32,066 nt of DNA from a virus (taxonomy: Duplodnaviria; Heunggongvirae; Uroviricota; Caudoviricetes). Within the stretch, counting starts at the first letter, position 1. Every line of letters begins with the position of its first letter. A model generated the notes under the pieces. The model made no database searches. It saw nothing but the letters and a program-made list of their open reading frames with translations, and was not told the DNA's origin. Positions 1-12,998 of this stretch are shown here, piece after piece. The position numbers and the translations under genes were made by a program. The stretch is from IMG/VR virus record IMGVR_UViG_2565956714_000003. One strand, given 5' to 3'.

Positions 1-1164
1 TTACGCCTTCTTTATATCCTCCATAATTCCAGAGTGGGACATATTTGGGACATTATCACCAAAAATGTCGTCTATTTTCCTCGCATGCTCTGTCAAATGA
101 TTAGGCGCAAGGTGAGCATACCTACGAACCATTTCTATGGACTCCCATCCGCCCATTTCCTGAAGCACTGATAATGGGACGCCTGACTGAATCAGCCAGC
201 TTGCCCAGGTGTGTCTGAGGTCATGGAAACGGAAATCTTCAATTCCTGCACGACGACAAGCTGATAGCCATGATGTCTTGCTGTCGATGCGCATCTTCCT
301 GACCGCAGGCGTTAATGTTCCATCTGCTCGCTTAGCCGCCTTGGTATGTACAAACACCCATTTGTGATGCTTGCCTATTTGATCACGCAACACTTTACAG
401 GCGGTATCGTTCAGCGCCACACCAATGGCGCGGTTTGATTTGCTCTCTTCTGGATTCACCCAGGCAACTCGTCGCTGCATGTCGATTTGTTGCCATTCCA
501 GATTTATGATGTTCGACTTTCTCAGACCAGTTGCCAGCGCAAACTTGACGACAGATTTCAGTGGTTCGGGGCACTCATCAATAAGGCGTTTTGCTTCCTC
601 CTTTTCCAGCCATCTGACTCGCTTGTTTCTGACCGCTGGTATCTTGATGACAGGCGCTTTTTCCAGCCACTTCCAGTCGCGTTCTGCAGCACGGAGAATG
701 GCCTTTATCATGGCAAGATGCTTTGCCTTTGTCTGAGTTGATACTGGCTTTGGTTCATAAACAGGCGGTTCTTTACCTTTCCTGATGGCGGCCTGAACTT
801 TCTGTTTCCATATTTCTTTCGTCTTTCTGTTATGCATTCTGCTTACAGCAGAGTAAATCTTTGCCTCCGAGATATCTTTAAGCCTTATACCCTCAAAATG
901 TTCAAGCCAGAACTCAATCCGGCTTTTATCTGAATCGAGAGATTTTTTATCAGCTTTTTCCTCAAGCCATCTTAGGCAGGCCTCTTCAAAAGTGACATCA
1001 GGTAAATCCCCTAGCTTTTCTACTCGCCAGAGTTCTGCTTTTCGCTTGTCGTGCAACTCCTGAGCTTGCCGCTTGTCCTTTGTGCCAAGAGATTCCTTAA
1101 TTCGTTTCCCGCCCGGGAGCGAATACGAGGCATACCATATTTCATTTCTGCGGAAGAGTGACAT
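1..1164 (-). CDS. int: Phage integrase, tyrosine recombinase (P22/DLP12 IntD type)
   Basis: 387-aa ORF; C-terminal HDLRHT...RRYAHL catalytic motifs (H-x-x-R, Y); RBS GAGGAAAG before ATG at 1164; stop codon at 1..3. Confidence 0.93.
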
Positions 1165-2489: not shown

Positions 2490-2650
2490 ACCGCCTCCCG
2501 TTTATTATTTATCTTCTCAGCCAGCCGCTGTGCTTTCAGGGGATTTCTGATAACAGAAAGGCCGGGAAATACCCAGCCTCGCTTTGTAACGGAGTAGACG
2601 AAAGTGATCGCGCCTACCCGGATATTATCGTGAGGATGCGTCATCGCCAT
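2462..2650 (-). CDS. Lambda orf60a-like protein
   Basis: 62-aa [41 protein letters not shown]..., recognised as lambda orf60a; sits immediately downstream of exo, overlapping the exo stop. Confidence 0.75.
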
Positions 2651-3321
2651 TGCTCCCCAAATACAAAACCAATTTCAGCCAGTGCCTCGTCCATTTTTTC
2701 GATGAACTCCGGCACCATCTCGTCAAAACTCGCCATGTACTTTTCATTCCGCTCAATCACGACATAATGCAGGCCTTCACGCTTCATGCGCGGGTCATAG
2801 TTGGCAAAGTACCAGGCATCTTTTCGCGTCACCCACATGCTGTACTGCACCTGGGCCATGTAAGCCGATTTTATTGCCTCGAAACCACCGAGCCGGAATT
2901 TCATGAAATCCCGGGAGGTAAACGGGCATTTCAGTTCAAGGCCGTTGCCGTCACTGCATAAACCATCGGGAGAGCAGGCGGTGCGCATACTTTCGTCGCG
3001 ATAGATGATCGGGGATTCAGTAATATTCACGCCGGAAGTGAATTCAAACAGGGTTCTGGCGTCGTTCTCGTACTGTTTTCCCCAGGCCAGCGCCTTAGCA
3101 TTAACTTCCGGAGCCACACCGGTGCAAACCTCAGCCAGCAGGGTGTGGAAGTAGGACATTTTCATGTCAGGCCACTTCTTTCCTGAGCGGGGCTTTGCTA
3201 TCACGTTGTGAACTTCTGAAGCGGTGATGACGCCGAGCCGTAATTTGTGCCATGCATCATCCCCCTGTTCGACAGCTCTCACGTCGATCCCGGTACGCTG
3301 CAGGATAATGTCCGGTATCAT
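2641..3321 (-). CDS. exo: Lambda exonuclease (Red alpha)
   Basis: 226-aa ORF near-identical to lambda Exo ([54 protein letters not shown]...). Confidence 0.97.
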
Positions 3322-4103
3322 GCTGCCACCTTCTGCTCAGTGGCTTTCTGTTTCAGGAATCCAAGAGCTTTCACTGCTTCGGCCTGTGTCAGTTCTGACG
3401 ATGCGCGAATGTCGCGGCGAAATATCTGGGAACAGAGCGGCAATAAGTCGTCATCCCATGTTTTATCCAGGGCGATCAGCAGAGTGTTAATCTCCTGCAT
3501 GGTTTCATCGTTAACCGGAGTGATGTCGCGTTCTGGCTGACGTTCTGCAGTGTATGCAGTATTTTCGACAATGCGCTCGGCTTCATCCTTGTCATAGATA
3601 CCAGCAAATCCGAAGGCCAGACGGGCACACTGAATCATGGCTTTATGCCGTAACATCCGTTTGGGATGCGACTGCCACGGCCCCGTGATTTCTCTGCCTT
3701 CGCGGGTTTTGAATGGTTCGCGGCGGCATTCATCCATCCATTCGGTAACGCAGATCGGATGATTACGGTCCTTGCGGTAAATCCGGCATGTACAGGATTC
3801 ATTGTCCTGCTCAAAGTCCATGCCATCAAACTGCTGGTTTTCATTGATGATGCGGGACCAGCCATCAACGCCCACCACCGGAACAATGCCGTTCTGCTTA
3901 TCAGGGAAGGCGTAAATTTCTTTCGTCCACGGATTAAGGCCGTACTGGTTGGCGACGATCAGCAATGCGATGAACTGCGCATCGCTGGTATCACCTTTAA
4001 ATGCCGTCTGGCGAAGAGTGGTGATCAGTTCCTGTGGGTCGACAGAATCCATGCCGACACGTTCAGCCAGCTTCCCTGCCAGCGTTGCGAGTGCTGTACT
4101 CAT
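3318..4103 (-). CDS. bet: Lambda Bet (Red beta) single-strand annealing protein
   Basis: 261-aa ORF near-identical to lambda Bet ([38 protein letters not shown]...); ATGA overlap with exo. Confidence 0.97.
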
Positions 4104-4108
4104 CCGTT

Positions 4109-4405
4109 TTATACCTCTGAATCAATATCAACCTGGTGGTGAGCAATGGTTTCAACCATGTACCGGATGTGTTCTGCCATGCGCTCCTGAAACTCAACAT
4201 CGTCATCAAACGCACGGGTAATGGCTTTTTTGCTGGCCCCGTGGCGTTGCAAATGATCGATGCATAGCGATTCAAACAGGTGCTGGGGCAGGCCTTTTTC
4301 AATGTCGTCTGCCAGTTCTGCCTCTTTCTCTTCACGGGCGATCTGCTGGTAGTAACGCGCCCAGCTCTGAGCCTCAAGACGATCCTGAATGTAATAAGCG
4401 TTCAT
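4109..4405 (-). CDS. gam: Lambda Gam (RecBCD inhibitor), 98-aa form
   Basis: [37 protein letters not shown]... matches lambda Gam; RBS CAGGAG; an in-frame stop lies upstream, so only the short form is encoded. Confidence 0.95.
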
Positions 4406-4480
4406 GGCTGAACTCCTGAAAATGGCTGTGAAAATATCGCCCGCGAAATGCCAGGCTGATTAGGAAAACAGGAAAGGGGA

Positions 4481-4687
4481 TTAGCGATTCAGGCCGTTAC
4501 CGCGTCCGTCGAGAAAAACTTCCACGAGCAAATCACGGGTATAAGTGCGCTCGATGCCGCGATGCAGATAAAGCCGTCCGCGTAAATTAGCTGATGCAGT
4601 CCAGGTACCATCTTTGTGTTTGACCAGCATTCCTGGCATGACCGCGCCGCGATTAACGGTCTGCGTTCCGTAATGTTGATGAACCAT
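4481..4687 (-). CDS. Hypothetical early protein (68 aa) at the kil/cIII position of the leftward operon
   Basis: [32 protein letters not shown]... with strong RBS AGGAG 7 nt before ATG at 4687; the ORF track extends it to 4771 (96 aa) with a weaker start. Confidence 0.5.
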
Positions 4688-4959
4688 AAAAACTCCTGCC
4701 CGTAAGCTGGGCTGCTGAACATATAGAGACTTCTGCGCGTATTCAGGCGGTGGATGGCCGCCGGTTGTCATAACTAAGCCGCCTCGTTGAAGCGACTAAG
4801 GTATGAAATGTTGAGTTGATTTCAGCTGGTCACACCGACGTTCACGCGTCCGTTTCACCCCTCGCACTCCCCGAAGCCTGCTGAAATTCAAACTGCGGAT
4901 CTAAGCGGTCATCGCAACGGTGAATCAGGTGGTTGCCGTATCGTTGTGTTGTTGCGATG

Positions 4960-5045
4960 AACTTATTTAAAACTATAGTTGTTTTACCGTCAACAACAAA
5001 AGTTGTTTTATTGGTTGTTTTAGATATAACTGGTTGTATTTAGGA
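4960..5045 (-). promoter_or_regulatory. Candidate OL/pL operator-promoter region for the leftward early operon
   Basis: Cluster of the operator heptamer shared with OR: AACAAC-AAAA-GTTGTT palindrome 4992..5007, TGGTTGT at 5012..5018 and 5031..5037, plus palindrome AACTATAGTT 4971..4980. Confidence 0.5.
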
Positions 5046-5131
5046 TGGATTTATTTTGTGACTTGAATCGCATAGCGATAACTGAAGCGAGGTTATGGTG
5101 GTTTTTTTAACGGTGTGTGTGATGAGGGGAG

Positions 5132-5161
5132 GGCAAAAGAAAACCCGGCACGGTGACCGGG
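5132..5161 (-). terminator. Rho-independent terminator-like hairpin downstream of cI
   Basis: Stem CCCGG/CCGGG (5144..5148 / 5157..5161) with 8-nt loop, followed on the minus strand by UUUUCUUUUG (plus strand CAAAAGAAAA 5134..5143). Confidence 0.5.
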
Positions 5162-5282
5162 ATTCTTACGCCGTTAGGTAAAGATATTATTGCGGTGGCT
5201 TAATATTACTACCTAGAGCAAAGATAGGAATTAGTTCTTTACTGAATGAGCACAATGCCCAGTTGATAATTTTTAATTGGTA

Positions 5283-5972
5283 CTACCCATGCTTCCTATA
5301 TGTCTGCGGCATGCTCCCAATAACCTTACCGAAGATGAACACCCGGTTCATCTCGTCTTTCTCGATCGGGTCCCACGGTGAGTAGCTTTTGTTATCAGAG
5401 ATGACCAGCAGCTTATCCTTCATCATTTGCAGGCGCTTTACATGGGCTGTGTCGTCGTACAGAAACGCATAGATACCATCACCGTCGAAAGATTTAACTG
5501 TGATATCAACGAACAGCAGATCACCTGGTTCGATCGTTCCTGACATGCTGTCACCACGCACGTTAATGATGCGGATATTTTCCGCCTTCCTACCATCGAA
5601 CATATGACGAGCATCGTCAAACGAGTACTCAACCGAGCGTAGAACTTCTACAAACTCACGGTTGATGACTCCCGGCCCAGCACTGACTTCTATATCAAGA
5701 ACGTCAATCTTGAAGTATTTGGAATGGCTGACAGTTGATTGTATTGGTTGCACTGTACTGTCTGACATATTTCCAACGCCAGAAGATAACCATTCTGCGC
5801 GCACACCCAAAGCGTTCGCGATCTCCACGATTTTAGTTGTTTGATTAGCTTTCCCTGTTTCGATTTTCTGAATAGCAGCTTGGCTAACCCCGACCAAATC
5901 CCCAAGCGCCTTTTGTGTAAGGCCTCGCGCTAATCTGGCTTCTTTAAGTCTTTCTGAGAGTGTTGTTTTCAT
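5283..5972 (-). CDS. cI: CI-type prophage repressor (HTH_XRE N-domain, LexA/S24 peptidase-like C-domain)
   Basis: ORF with HTH LTQKALGDLVGVSQAAIQKIETG, an Ala-Gly (SAGPG) candidate autocleavage site, and GDSM...VKRL Ser-Lys dyad motifs; divergent from cro; start assigned to Met at 5972, while the track ORF reads through the operators to 6038. Confidence 0.85.
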   Translation of the reverse strand: MKTTLSERLKEARLARGLTQKALGDLVGVSQAAIQKIETGKANQTTKIVEIANALGVRAEWLSSGVGNMSDSTVQPIQSTVSHSKYFKIDVLDIEVSAGPGVINREFVEVLRSVEYSFDDARHMFDGRKAENIRIINVRGDSMSGTIEPGDLLFVDITVKSFDGDGIYAFLYDDTAHVKRLQMMKDKLLVISDNKSYSPWDPIEKDEMNRVFIFGKVIGSMPQTYRKHG

Positions 5973-6076
5973 AGTCCAAATGTACAACCAAGGTTTTATT
6001 TCATCAAACGAAAATGGTTGTTGACTAAAAACAACCATAGTTTTAATCTTGATTCAAATTAACCACGGAGGTTGTT
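5973..6076. promoter_or_regulatory. OR operator / divergent promoter region between cI and cro
   Basis: Heptamer ACAACCA at 5984..5990 and 6031..6037, TGGTTGT at 6016..6022; perfect inverted repeat ATGGTTGTT-N7-AACAACCAT (6014..6038) overlapping a TTGACT -35-like hexamer (6021..6026) with TTTAAT -10-like hexamer at 6042..6047. Confidence 0.7.
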
Positions 6077-6307
6077 ATGAACCCAGCTATCAAAACAGCG
6101 ATCAATATCGTTGGTTCACAAAAGAAACTGGGCGCTGCTTGCGAAGTTTCACAGCAGGCCGTCTATAAGTGGCTTCACAACAAAGCAAAGGTATCCCCTG
6201 AACATGTCGGCAGCATTGTTACGGCTACTGGTGGAGTAGTGAAGGCATACCAGATTCGCCCGGATCTTCCGAAGTTGTTTCCACACACCGAAAAGAACGC
6301 AGCTTAA
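6077..6307 (+). CDS. cro: Cro-like repressor (YdaS-family small HTH protein)
   Basis: 76-aa ORF divergent from cI; RBS GGAGG; HTH-like segment KKLGAACEVSQQAVYKWL. Confidence 0.8.
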   Translation: MNPAIKTAINIVGSQKKLGAACEVSQQAVYKWLHNKAKVSPEHVGSIVTATGGVVKAYQIRPDLPKLFPHTEKNAA

Positions 6308-6319
6308 ATTTCCATTTCA

Positions 6320-6332
6320 CGCTCTTTAACAA
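6320..6332 (+). promoter_or_regulatory. boxA-like antitermination motif downstream of cro
   Basis: CGCTCTTTAACAA matches the boxA consensus (lambda CGCTCTTA; rrn-type TGCTCTTTAACAA) at the position nutR occupies in lambda; no obvious boxB hairpin follows. Confidence 0.45.
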
Positions 6333-6376
6333 TAAGCAATCAACTTAACAGTCAATTCAAACTAAAGGAGTCAATT

Positions 6377-6916
6377 ATGCAACCACTTACATACCAACAG
6401 ACTAGCGGATTTAGCCCGACTGCGGTGATAAATCGTTCTCAAACAAAACAGGTGCCAGGCCACGAAAAAATCCGTGATGCCGTCCGCGCTTGGTCGGCTG
6501 AAGATAATCAGGATGTCGTTGCCACACTCATTGTGAATGAGTATCGGGAGCAGGGCGGCGGCACCATCGATTTCCCTGATGATGTCAGCCGTGCACGCCA
6601 GAAGCTGTTCCGCTTCCTCGATAACAAATTCGATTCTGAAAAATACCGAAATAACGTGCGTGAACTGACCCCGGCAATTCTGGCGGTACTACCGCTGGAA
6701 TATCGCGGTTACCTGGTTGAGCAGGATAGCTTCATGGCTAGGTTGGCTGAAATGGAAAAGGAACTCAGTGAGGCAAAACAGGCTGTCATTCTCAACGCAC
6801 CACGCCACCAGAAACTGAAGGAAATTAGTGAAGGTATTGTGTCGATGTTTCGTGTGGACCCAGATCTGGCTGGTCCATTGATGGCGATGGTTACTACCAT
6901 GCTGGGGGCGATATGA
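6377..6916 (+). CDS. CII-position regulatory protein, YdaT-like (179 aa)
   Basis: ORF with RBS AAGGAG between cro and O; motifs EYREQGGG and LTPAILAVLPLEYR resemble Rac YdaT as I remember it. Confidence 0.55.
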   Translation: MQPLTYQQTSGFSPTAVINRSQTKQVPGHEKIRDAVRAWSAEDNQDVVATLIVNEYREQGGGTIDFPDDVSRARQKLFRFLDNKFDSEKYRNNVRELTPAILAVLPLEYRGYLVEQDSFMARLAEMEKELSEAKQAVILNAPRHQKLKEISEGIVSMFRVDPDLAGPLMAMVTTMLGAI

Positions 6917-7002
6917 CAGGTTCAGAAATGGCGAAAGCCGGTCTGCTGGAACAGAACCGACTTTCAGGTGCAAATCGTAACACACTCATTGCGGGAGGAA
7001 TT

Positions 7003-9359: not shown

Positions 9360-9400
9360 GGAGGCTCTTATATTTATATGAGCCTCGTTTTATGCTTTTT
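9360..9400 (+). terminator. Rho-independent terminator downstream of emrE
   Basis: Stem GGAGGCTC/GAGCCTC with AT-rich loop, followed by GTTTTATGCTTTTT. Confidence 0.6.
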
Positions 9401-12934: not shown

Positions 12935-12998
12935 AAGTGTTTTAAGAAGGAGCAATTCTATCGATTTTGATTTTGGGAAATCAACACGGCATAATTAT

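Follow-up and report, generated by a model that had tools for sequence, protein, structure and literature searches.

An N-less and put-less lambdoid immunity region in a DLP12-type prophage, probably served by ordinary readthrough

How does a lambda-like phage reach its delayed-early genes when neither N nor a familiar substitute for it can be recognised? The question is raised by the immunity region of IMG/VR virus record IMGVR_UViG_2565956714_000003, a stretch of 32,066 nucleotides from a tailed virus of the Caudoviricetes (the whole stretch is called the window below), in which a cI-like repressor gene stands back to back with a small YdaS-type cro gene and a boxA-like motif follows cro. 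An earlier note made from the sequence had left three answers: that N-type antitermination is absent or defective, so that delayed-early expression depends on readthrough; that antitermination is RNA-based, of the put type known from HK022; or that a factor not yet recognised carries it out. The answer that we consider probable, though far from secure, is that the window holds an intact DLP12-like phage with the architecture of HK639, CP-933P and Rac but without N and nut or put, that its delayed-early genes are reached by ordinary readthrough, and that the boxA is a remnant. Most likely, no phage antiterminator would be needed for delayed-early expression in this phage.

PHROG and other family scans of the early open reading frames (ORFs) revealed no N, Nun, rexAB or cIII, the earlier note having proposed the absence of N, rexAB and cIII, and no N family was matched in PHROG, Pfam or NCBIfam. 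Furthermore, tblastn searches with lambda N, P22 gp24, phi80 N and HK022 Nun returned only noise, and no N gene is annotated in the complete 44.6-kb genome of Escherichia phage PhiR34_1, a close relative described below. The leftward operon does not open with an arginine-rich N gene as in lambda; its first gene is kil, to which PHROG 294 ('Kil') is assigned, which NCBIfam PRK11354 aligns from residue 58 of a longer ORF, and which has a strong Shine-Dalgarno (SD) sequence, AGGAG, 5 nt upstream of its start. Between pL and this gene no nutL was found, the best boxA-like 12-mer of the leader having four mismatches. In the case of put, we built a covariance model (R1) from 23 put sequences of HK022, HK639 and viral contigs, which scored 98 bits with HK022 putL, 66.7 with HK022 putR and 90.7 with HK639 putL. 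This model gave no match in either leader of the window, where its best match (E 0.54) lies elsewhere, and it was also negative in PhiR34_1, IdasGreatGrand, PhiR26_1 and 4A7. An HK022/HK639-type put RNA, that is, a two-stem RNA of ~70 nt which follows pL and, in HK022, also pR, is therefore rejected, and with it the RNA-based answer in its put-like form. Rfam gave no matches at gathering thresholds in the whole window and only noise at permissive E-values in 4600-5000. The folding of the leader and of the cro-cII spacer, which had been suggested as a way to find boxB-like or put-like stem-loops, yielded nothing better than shuffled sequences (z -0.53 and +0.39, respectively).

From 4957 down to 4688 the minus strand has no terminator-like site, and there is no terminator hairpin on the pR path from cro through the degenerate nutR to ydaT-O-P; because N and put are absent and neither the leader nor the cro-ydaT spacer has an early terminator, we favour ordinary readthrough. 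After derepression, pL transcripts would cross the 270-nt leader straight into kil-gam-bet-exo and pR transcripts would run from cro, across a nutR with its boxA intact and one boxB arm deleted, into ydaT-O-P, so that the recombination and replication genes would be reached without an early terminator or a phage antiterminator.

This phage type is viable. Positions 4400-7000 of the window have 99.5% DNA identity to PhiR34_1, a complete, plaque-forming phage whose listed host is K-12 MG1655, and the same region is found with 94-99% identity in 15 more isolated phages (16 including PhiR34_1), among them IdasGreatGrand, Turner, 4A7 (genus Bievrevirus), Lambda_4C10 and Perceval. These data bear on the possibility that the prophage is simply defective, the loss of N and boxB having crippled delayed-early expression and left the region to decay. 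The degenerate nutR would agree with it, and so would the fact that the DLP12 of K-12, the classic relative, is defective. However, PhiR34_1 carries the same boxB-deleted allele and grows on MG1655 as a complete phage, the leader is shared by the fifteen other isolated phages, and the ORFs of the immunity region are all intact, so that we find this explanation barely credible. Of the first answer given above, then, absence with plain readthrough is what fits best of the three, whereas 'defective' has to be dropped, PhiR34_1 having been propagated on K-12.

The boxA-like motif noticed after cro proved to be an exact consensus: CGCTCTTTAACAA occurs at 6320-6332 (+), in the pR transcript, and is the sole match in the window with fewer than two mismatches. 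The published consensus GYTCTTTAANA (PMC5725501) is likewise matched only once, at 6321-6331. This 11-mer alone is not rare (0.22 expected per window), but a chance origin is unlikely because the 13-mer is exact and located in the 69-nt spacer between cro and cII. As in the nutR of lambda, P22 and 21, it stands just after cro on the pR transcript; unlike these phages, the window has no N gene and no nutL, and folding of the spacer gave no boxB hairpin, so that a complete nutR is not present. Among the loci with the same ydaT this spacer exists in two forms, the boxA form of the window and a form without boxA that goes with a different cro and has a short GC hairpin, as in phage 4A7. L157 and L171, two minor alleles with the boxA form, are longer by 12 bases, and with these they form a 5-bp stem and pentaloop 18 nt 3' of boxA (GACUG-AUUAA/AUGAA-CAGUC), keeping the nut architecture of lambda, P22 and 21. 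This hairpin aligns column for column with those that follow boxA in L228 and L341, two further loci of the ydaT type (GGCUGA-AUUA-UCAGCC and GGCUGA-GUAA-UCAGCC). In the window allele a clean deletion has destroyed the boxB and left a scar (Table 1); among the loci fetched, 27 are deleted and 2 intact, and the boxB-retaining alleles occur in phages with the same N-less leader. As the minor alleles keep the boxB-like hairpin that is deleted in the window, the comparison favours the view that one half of a former nutR survives as boxA, a remnant of an N-using ancestor. We also considered boxA as a general trait of ydaT-type operons and rejected it, since among diverse ydaT loci of different species it lies upstream in only 2 of 52, both of which then have a hairpin at the boxB position. 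In addition, the heteroimmune sister phage 4A7 keeps the same leader and the same cII-O-P genes without boxA, and boxA is to judge from this comparison dispensable for the ydaT-O-P operon.

Several observations weigh against ordinary readthrough past a dead relic. The boxA still matches the consensus exactly, and in a divergent allele it has the form GTTCTTTAACA, which remains compatible with the consensus; this is mild evidence of continued selection. The pL leader is conserved from its transcript start across immunity types, as expected of a functional RNA. Farther downstream, a good intrinsic terminator (+) follows the emrE moron at ~9362-9400, inside the path from pR to Q (it reads GGAGGCTC...GAGCCTC and ends in a T-run), and two minus-strand terminators, at 2580-2558 and 1985-1967, separate exo from xis/int; on the way to Q and int, therefore, some readthrough device or internal promoters would still be needed. 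The scans, moreover, cover terminators of the intrinsic type, Rho-dependent ones not being predictable in this way. In the scheme that we favour, the emrE and exo-int terminators may be passed by leakiness, from internal promoters, with Nus factors at boxA, or with the help of an unrecognised factor.

The state of boxA is also the basis for an explanation that we regard as possible but unlikely, namely that the orphan boxA is functional without N. It could load NusB/NusE together with NusA, NusG and SuhB on RNA polymerase as in rrn operons, conferring Rho resistance on pR transcription through the long, moron-filled nin region, or Nus binding could tune ydaT translation or Rho termination as in suhB, coupling the lysis-lysogeny choice to the growth state. 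The motif is like the rrn and suhB boxA in matching GYTCTTTAANA exactly without boxB or N, it lies on the transcribed strand, and it ends 45 nt 5' of the ydaT-like ATG at 6377, within the 50 nt from the start codon that define the suhB type (PMC5725501). The divergent allele keeps its boxA though ~7 other positions of the 70-nt spacer have changed, and the majority allele keeps it despite the loss of boxB. However, the alleles are very close, so survival could reflect a recent origin; sister phages do with the same ydaT-O-P operon and no boxA; the two boxA-bearing loci among the 52 have a hairpin where boxB would be, as in a complete nut site; and the pL leader has no boxA. In contrast to rrn and suhB, a nutR origin is what the phage setting and the comparisons suggest, and Nus recruitment is here putative. 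Even as a nutR relic, the boxA may still bind NusB/NusE and retain some Nus-dependent function in the manner of rrn or suhB, which is conceivable because of its perfect consensus and its site 45 nt before the ydaT start.

The pL leader consists of a 5' part and a conserved cassette. Its conservation with heteroimmune phages such as 4A7 starts at about 4957, the predicted pL start. In local alignments the pL transcripts of phi80, HK639 and L228 begin with a sequence similar to the first ~30 nt of the leader, and the next ~110 nt are G-rich and are seen only in close relatives. That the leader could be a decayed phi80 N gene was considered and rejected, as there is no significant similarity past those first ~30 nt. 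As a separate observation, the pL transcripts of the window (4925-4957, minus strand), HK639 (L004, ~1115-1145), phi80 (L328, 1775-1800) and L228 (5730-5760) share a 5' hairpin of the form CAUCG(A/C)AAC...CGAU, downstream of which the sequences differ, with put, nutL or neither.

The cassette forms the last 125 nt of the leader and comprises three hairpins and an upstream ORF (uORF) encoding MTTGGHPPP, a polyproline peptide, which in the window is fused in frame to kil. The first hairpin is long (4805 to 4769) and pairs CAUA with UAUG, thus sequestering the AUG of the uORF at 4771-4769; the second (GGCGG/CCAUCCA/CCGCC, 4762-4746) is invariant; and the third lies just 5' of the kil SD sequence. 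Hairpin 1 shows strong covariation: five pairs have compensatory changes on both sides, and 98.7% of its cells are paired versus 87.7% in shuffles (0 of 500 reaching the observed value), controls with slid partners giving 30-53%. The uORF frame and its ...EVLY stop are maintained across several indels among the homologues, which have 75-92% identity and occur in many lambdoid contigs, Enterobacter phage ENT1, HK225, phi80 and HK639. Elsewhere the cassette typically comes directly after an intrinsic terminator, and its third hairpin precedes the SD sequence of whichever gene comes next. In phi80 it is directly 3' of N and tL1A, in a tL1 region where the Rho-dependent terminator tL1B is annotated, and the HK639 annotation labels part of it 'terminator'. 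The intrinsic terminator that precedes it in phi80- and HK639-like phages is absent in the window, and relatives carry GGCGGGTTTTTT or AGCGGCTTTTTT immediately 5' of the cassette. It has no Rfam family match, and a text search of the literature turned up no description of the cassette or of the MTTGGHPPP uORF. A reasonable guess, and no more, is that Rho termination or the translation of what follows is here controlled in a way that depends on translation.

Could this leader RNA itself be a new, non-put antiterminator, acting through its 5' 145 nt or the hairpin/uORF cassette, or a translation/Rho switch in which ribosomes stalled on MTTGGHPPP block Rho loading? Its conservation from +1 across heteroimmune phages, its presence in 2314 of 5426 complete E. 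coli genomes, the covariation and in-frame uORF of the cassette, and the position of the phi80 cassette in the region of tL1B all speak for it. However, the 5' part has no structural signal (z +0.33 against shuffles), O157-type relatives have other sequence in place of its first 35 nt, nothing comparable exists in the pR operon, and in phages with put or N the cassette is found 3' of an intrinsic terminator, so that it co-exists with true antiterminators rather than substituting for them. We consider this explanation improbable.

The earlier note had also described the ~300 bp of the leader as free of any N-like or arginine-rich ORF. No N was found there, but a 31-codon arginine-rich ORF (...RGVKRTRERR...) is present at 4796-4891 (-), which in most relatives continues in frame into kil to give 125-136 aa. 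Read from a GTG at 4858, the ORF of the relatives encodes 125 aa with the N-terminus MKRTRERR, comparable to the TRRRERR of lambda N, and it could thus be a cryptic N-like protein of which the window has an amber-mutant allele. Most relatives have the ORF open, and the annotation of several phages lists it as a long 'Kil'; a GGGGAG SD sequence stands 8 nt upstream, and this frame has a mild excess of synonymous changes (15 synonymous to 16 non-synonymous, versus 7:24 and 12:17 in the other frames). Against this, the TAG is also present in five isolated, plaque-forming phages, R->W and R->C variants fall inside the arginine motif, and the part past 4812 is the cassette, invariant at the nucleotide level without wobble variation and followed by unrelated genes in other phages. 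There is furthermore no matching boxB in either leader and no N-family similarity, and RefSeq annotates nothing there. The mini-ORF with the arginine-rich motif, or an N-Kil fusion, was for these reasons rejected as the principal explanation and appears to be dispensable, and we regard a cryptic N as very improbable.

A last explanation combines two of these elements and holds that devices of the host alone replace N and put, the orphan boxA loading Nus factors on the pR transcript and the cassette being an undescribed translation-controlled Rho or attenuation switch in many lambdoid left operons, including those of phi80 and HK639. In this combined form we think it unlikely.

The switch on which ordinary readthrough would depend is lambdoid, as had been proposed, although its operator set differs from that of lambda. 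A repressor with helix-turn-helix and S24 peptidase domains is encoded divergently from a small Cro, as in a lambdoid cI/Cro switch, and the YdaS_toxin and YdaT_toxin matches both exceed the curated Pfam cut-offs, the two genes lying in tandem 3' of pR as in a YdaS/YdaT module. The reading of a LexA-type cI and a YdaS-type Cro flanked by heptamer clusters is supported by these domain matches and by the GTTGT repeats: 5 of the 8 window copies of TGGTTGT fall in two ~60-bp stretches flanking cI, and 262 bp contain 6 copies of GGTTGT (0.16 expected) and 8 of GTTGTT (0.25 expected). The two palindromes that had been pointed out, ATGGTTGTT-N7-AACAACCAT over the TTGACT at 6021-6026 and AACAAC-AAAA-GTTGTT in OL, were read directly at 6014-6038 and 4992-5007, where the earlier note had placed them. 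However, the first of them is not an operator by itself, as it consists of the right half of a site at 6008-6021 and the left half of another at 6031-6044. The pattern ACAACNNNNGTTGT with at most one mismatch has five matches across the 32 kb, every one in OL or OR (at 4969, 4993, 5984, 6031 and 6062, that at 4993 being perfect), and a site with two mismatches lies at 6008, the operator spacing being 23-24 bp. The best reading of the predicted operators is as sites of 14 bp, ACAAC-N4-GTTGT, in a 434-like form, the 434 operator consensus being ACAA-N6-TTGT. In the Klebsiella phage ST101-KPC2phi6.1, whose cro is 74% identical, the operator arms recur and the central four bases differ, which is what binding to the 14-mers as units would predict.

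The statement that these operators are not those of lambda, 434 or 21 is thus right for lambda but has to be modified for 434. The window has one perfect and four one-mismatch sites of the ACAA-N6-TTGT pattern together with a homologous helix-turn-helix domain, the best PDB match of the cI N-terminal domain being the 434 repressor (E 4.5e-9), with 434 Cro also among the best. Unlike in 434, position 5 of the sites is always C, the spacing is 23-24 bp and the Cro is of the YdaS type. Moreover, the recognition helix is not the same (VSQAAIQKI versus TTQQSIEQL in 434, with A and K at the equivalents of Q29 and Q33), and because of this difference the immunity is probably distinct from that of 434. 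Given the promoters predicted from the sequence and by analogy with lambda and 434 (Table 1), the repeated sites over pR/pRM and at pL would be placed like OR3, OR2, OR1 and OL1, OL2 of lambda, and we infer from this arrangement that cI and Cro would occupy them to operate a lambda/434-style switch of pR, pRM and pL. pL and pR have ~40 bp in common, and a Klebsiella phage (L331) has the same pL layout. The predicted pRM -10 hexamer ends 6 nt 5' of the cI ATG, which would place the ATG at the transcript start, so that the cI mRNA is probably leaderless.

Table 1. Features of the immunity region and its flanks, with homologous elements in other contigs (positions refer to the window unless a contig is named)
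Feature	Position	Strand	Remarks
kil (FtsZ-inhibitor family)	4481-4687	-	68 aa from ATG 4687; first gene of the leftward operon
Leader cassette	4688-4812	-	last 125 nt of the pL leader; three hairpins and uORF MTTGGHPPP
TAG codon	4796-4798	-	CAG in most relatives; interrupts the GTG 4858 ORF
5' pL leader	4813-4957	-	predicted transcript start 4957; without boxA, boxB or put
pL (predicted)	-35 TTGACG 4993-4988, N17, -10 TTAAAT 4970-4965	-	read from sequence
OL (predicted)	4969-5037		14-bp operators 4969-4982 (1 mismatch) and 4993-5006 (perfect, ACAACAAAAGTTGT); GGTTGT half-sites 5012-5018 and 5031-5037
Intrinsic terminator after cI	5144-5161	-	no gene between terminator and OL
cI repressor	5283-5972	-	229 aa; Pfam HTH_3 and Peptidase_S24; 434-like helix-turn-helix N-domain, S24 autocleavage domain
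OR (predicted)	5984-6075		operators 5984-5997 (over pRM -10), 6008-6021 (abuts pRM -35), 6031-6044 (pR spacer) and 6062-6075 (over cro SD)
pRM (predicted)	-35 TTGATG 6007-6002, N17, -10 TACATT 5984-5979	-	analogy with lambda and 434
pR (predicted)	-35 TTGACT 6021-6026, N17, -10 TAATCT 6044-6049	+	analogy with lambda and 434
cro, YdaS/P22-Cro type	6077-6307	+	76 aa; Pfam YdaS_toxin (4.1e-17) / P22_Cro
Deletion scar TTAACAG	6345-6351	+	clean 12-bp loss between TTAACAG repeats took one boxB-like arm; from alignment and folds
YdaT-type CII analogue	6377-6916	+	179 aa; Pfam YdaT_toxin (9.5e-30); PHROG 163; overlaps the start of gene O
Cassette homologue, phi80	L328, 2501-2640
Cassette homologue, HK639	L330, 1480-1610
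Cassette homologue, ENT1	L327, 2500-2620
GCCGC-YTAAYNN-GCGGC hairpin	L126 (4A7), 1740-1770; L331, 4255-4285; L328, 2481-2503		also in most of L332-L386, just 5' of ydaT

The closest studied relative is HK639 (NC_016158), which has the same gene order, a cI also of 229 aa (44% identical), a YdaS-type cro (62%) and a YdaT-type cII (52%), no N, kil-gam-recT downstream, the leader cassette upstream of the left-operon genes, and operators of the form ATAAC-N4-GTTAT in the same 14-bp layout. Unlike the window, HK639 has an annotated putL-like RNA ~70 nt after pL, the one scored at 90.7 bits by R1, intrinsic terminators that precede the cassette, and no boxA after cro. Phage phi80 (JX871397) shares with the window the 5' end of the pL transcript, a homologous cassette and kil downstream, but where phi80 has the boxA of nutL, an annotated N and tL1A, the window has ~110 nt of unrelated G-rich sequence. 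In CP-933P and Rac, YdaS acts as Cro, YdaT as a CII analogue and cI is leaderless (PMC8630535, PMC9986795), and the window agrees with them in the YdaS/YdaT roles, the predicted leaderless cI, the repeats in both OR and OL, and relatives that use the rex slot for cargo. However, the operator repeats of CP-933P are GTTTAGTAA, unlike those of the window (PMC8630535, PMC9986795), and both of these prophages are defective, in contrast to the viable type described here.

The rest of the window agrees with its being an intact version of a DLP12-type lambdoid prophage. It opens with an integrase gene (1-1164, minus strand), followed by exo, bet and gam (2641-4405, minus strand), with kil adjoining and then the divergent repressor/cro pair, and continues rightward with O, P, ren, emrE, ybcK-ybcO, rusA, a Q-like antiterminator and lambda-type lysis and head genes. 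The cI-cro block is found at a coverage of at least 80% in 1519 of 5426 complete E. coli genomes, so that, together with the counts for the leader given above, the module is present in about a quarter to two fifths of them. The region is thus a common, viable and ordinary, though little-studied, lambda-like variant and not a new kind of system. Its N-less and put-less status is useful for predicting prophage inducibility, immunity groups and transcription maps, and it represents a natural case of a lambdoid lineage that discarded N, for which the half-decayed nutR is direct evidence. Two questions are raised by it, whether a consensus boxA without N is active on phage transcription and what the hairpin/uORF cassette does, neither of which overturns current understanding.

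Some further observations concern the neighbourhood of these elements. The region 5060-5283, which corresponds to the rexAB slot of lambda, is empty in the window and in PhiR34_1; in relatives with the same cI it holds GevT/GevA, HipA/HipD, a lipoprotein, or an ASCH-domain protein with an ORF of ~350 aa, and in a Klebsiella phage it holds RexAB. The slot looks like a hot spot for cargo or defence genes.

As regards the CII analogue, the YdaT family has this role in CP-933P (PMC9986795, PMC8630535), but the window YdaT is too divergent for a PDB sequence match, and being so far from the solved structures it does not allow the operator specificity of CP-933P to be transferred. A search of the cro-ydaT spacer for the CP-933P YdaT operator, TTGATT-N6-AATCAA, gave no match with two or fewer mismatches. 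Elsewhere, the sequence TTGATTCAAATTAACCAC at 6049-6066, between the pR -10 hexamer and the cro SD sequence, has two mismatches to this operator, and a perfect copy, TTGATTTTGGGAAATCAA (~0.004 expected by chance), occurs at 12967-12984 between ybcM and ybcN. The latter overlaps promoter-like hexamers on both strands (TTGATT-17-CATAAT on the plus and TTGATT-18-TAGAAT on the minus strand) and could be a promoter under control of the CII analogue, upstream of the ninB-to-Q block and downstream of the emrE terminator.

Finally, most ydaT-type loci have a hairpin of the form GCCGC-YTAAYNN-GCGGC across the cro stop codon, there without a T-run (Table 1); the same hairpin followed by a T-run is the tL1A terminator after phi80 N.

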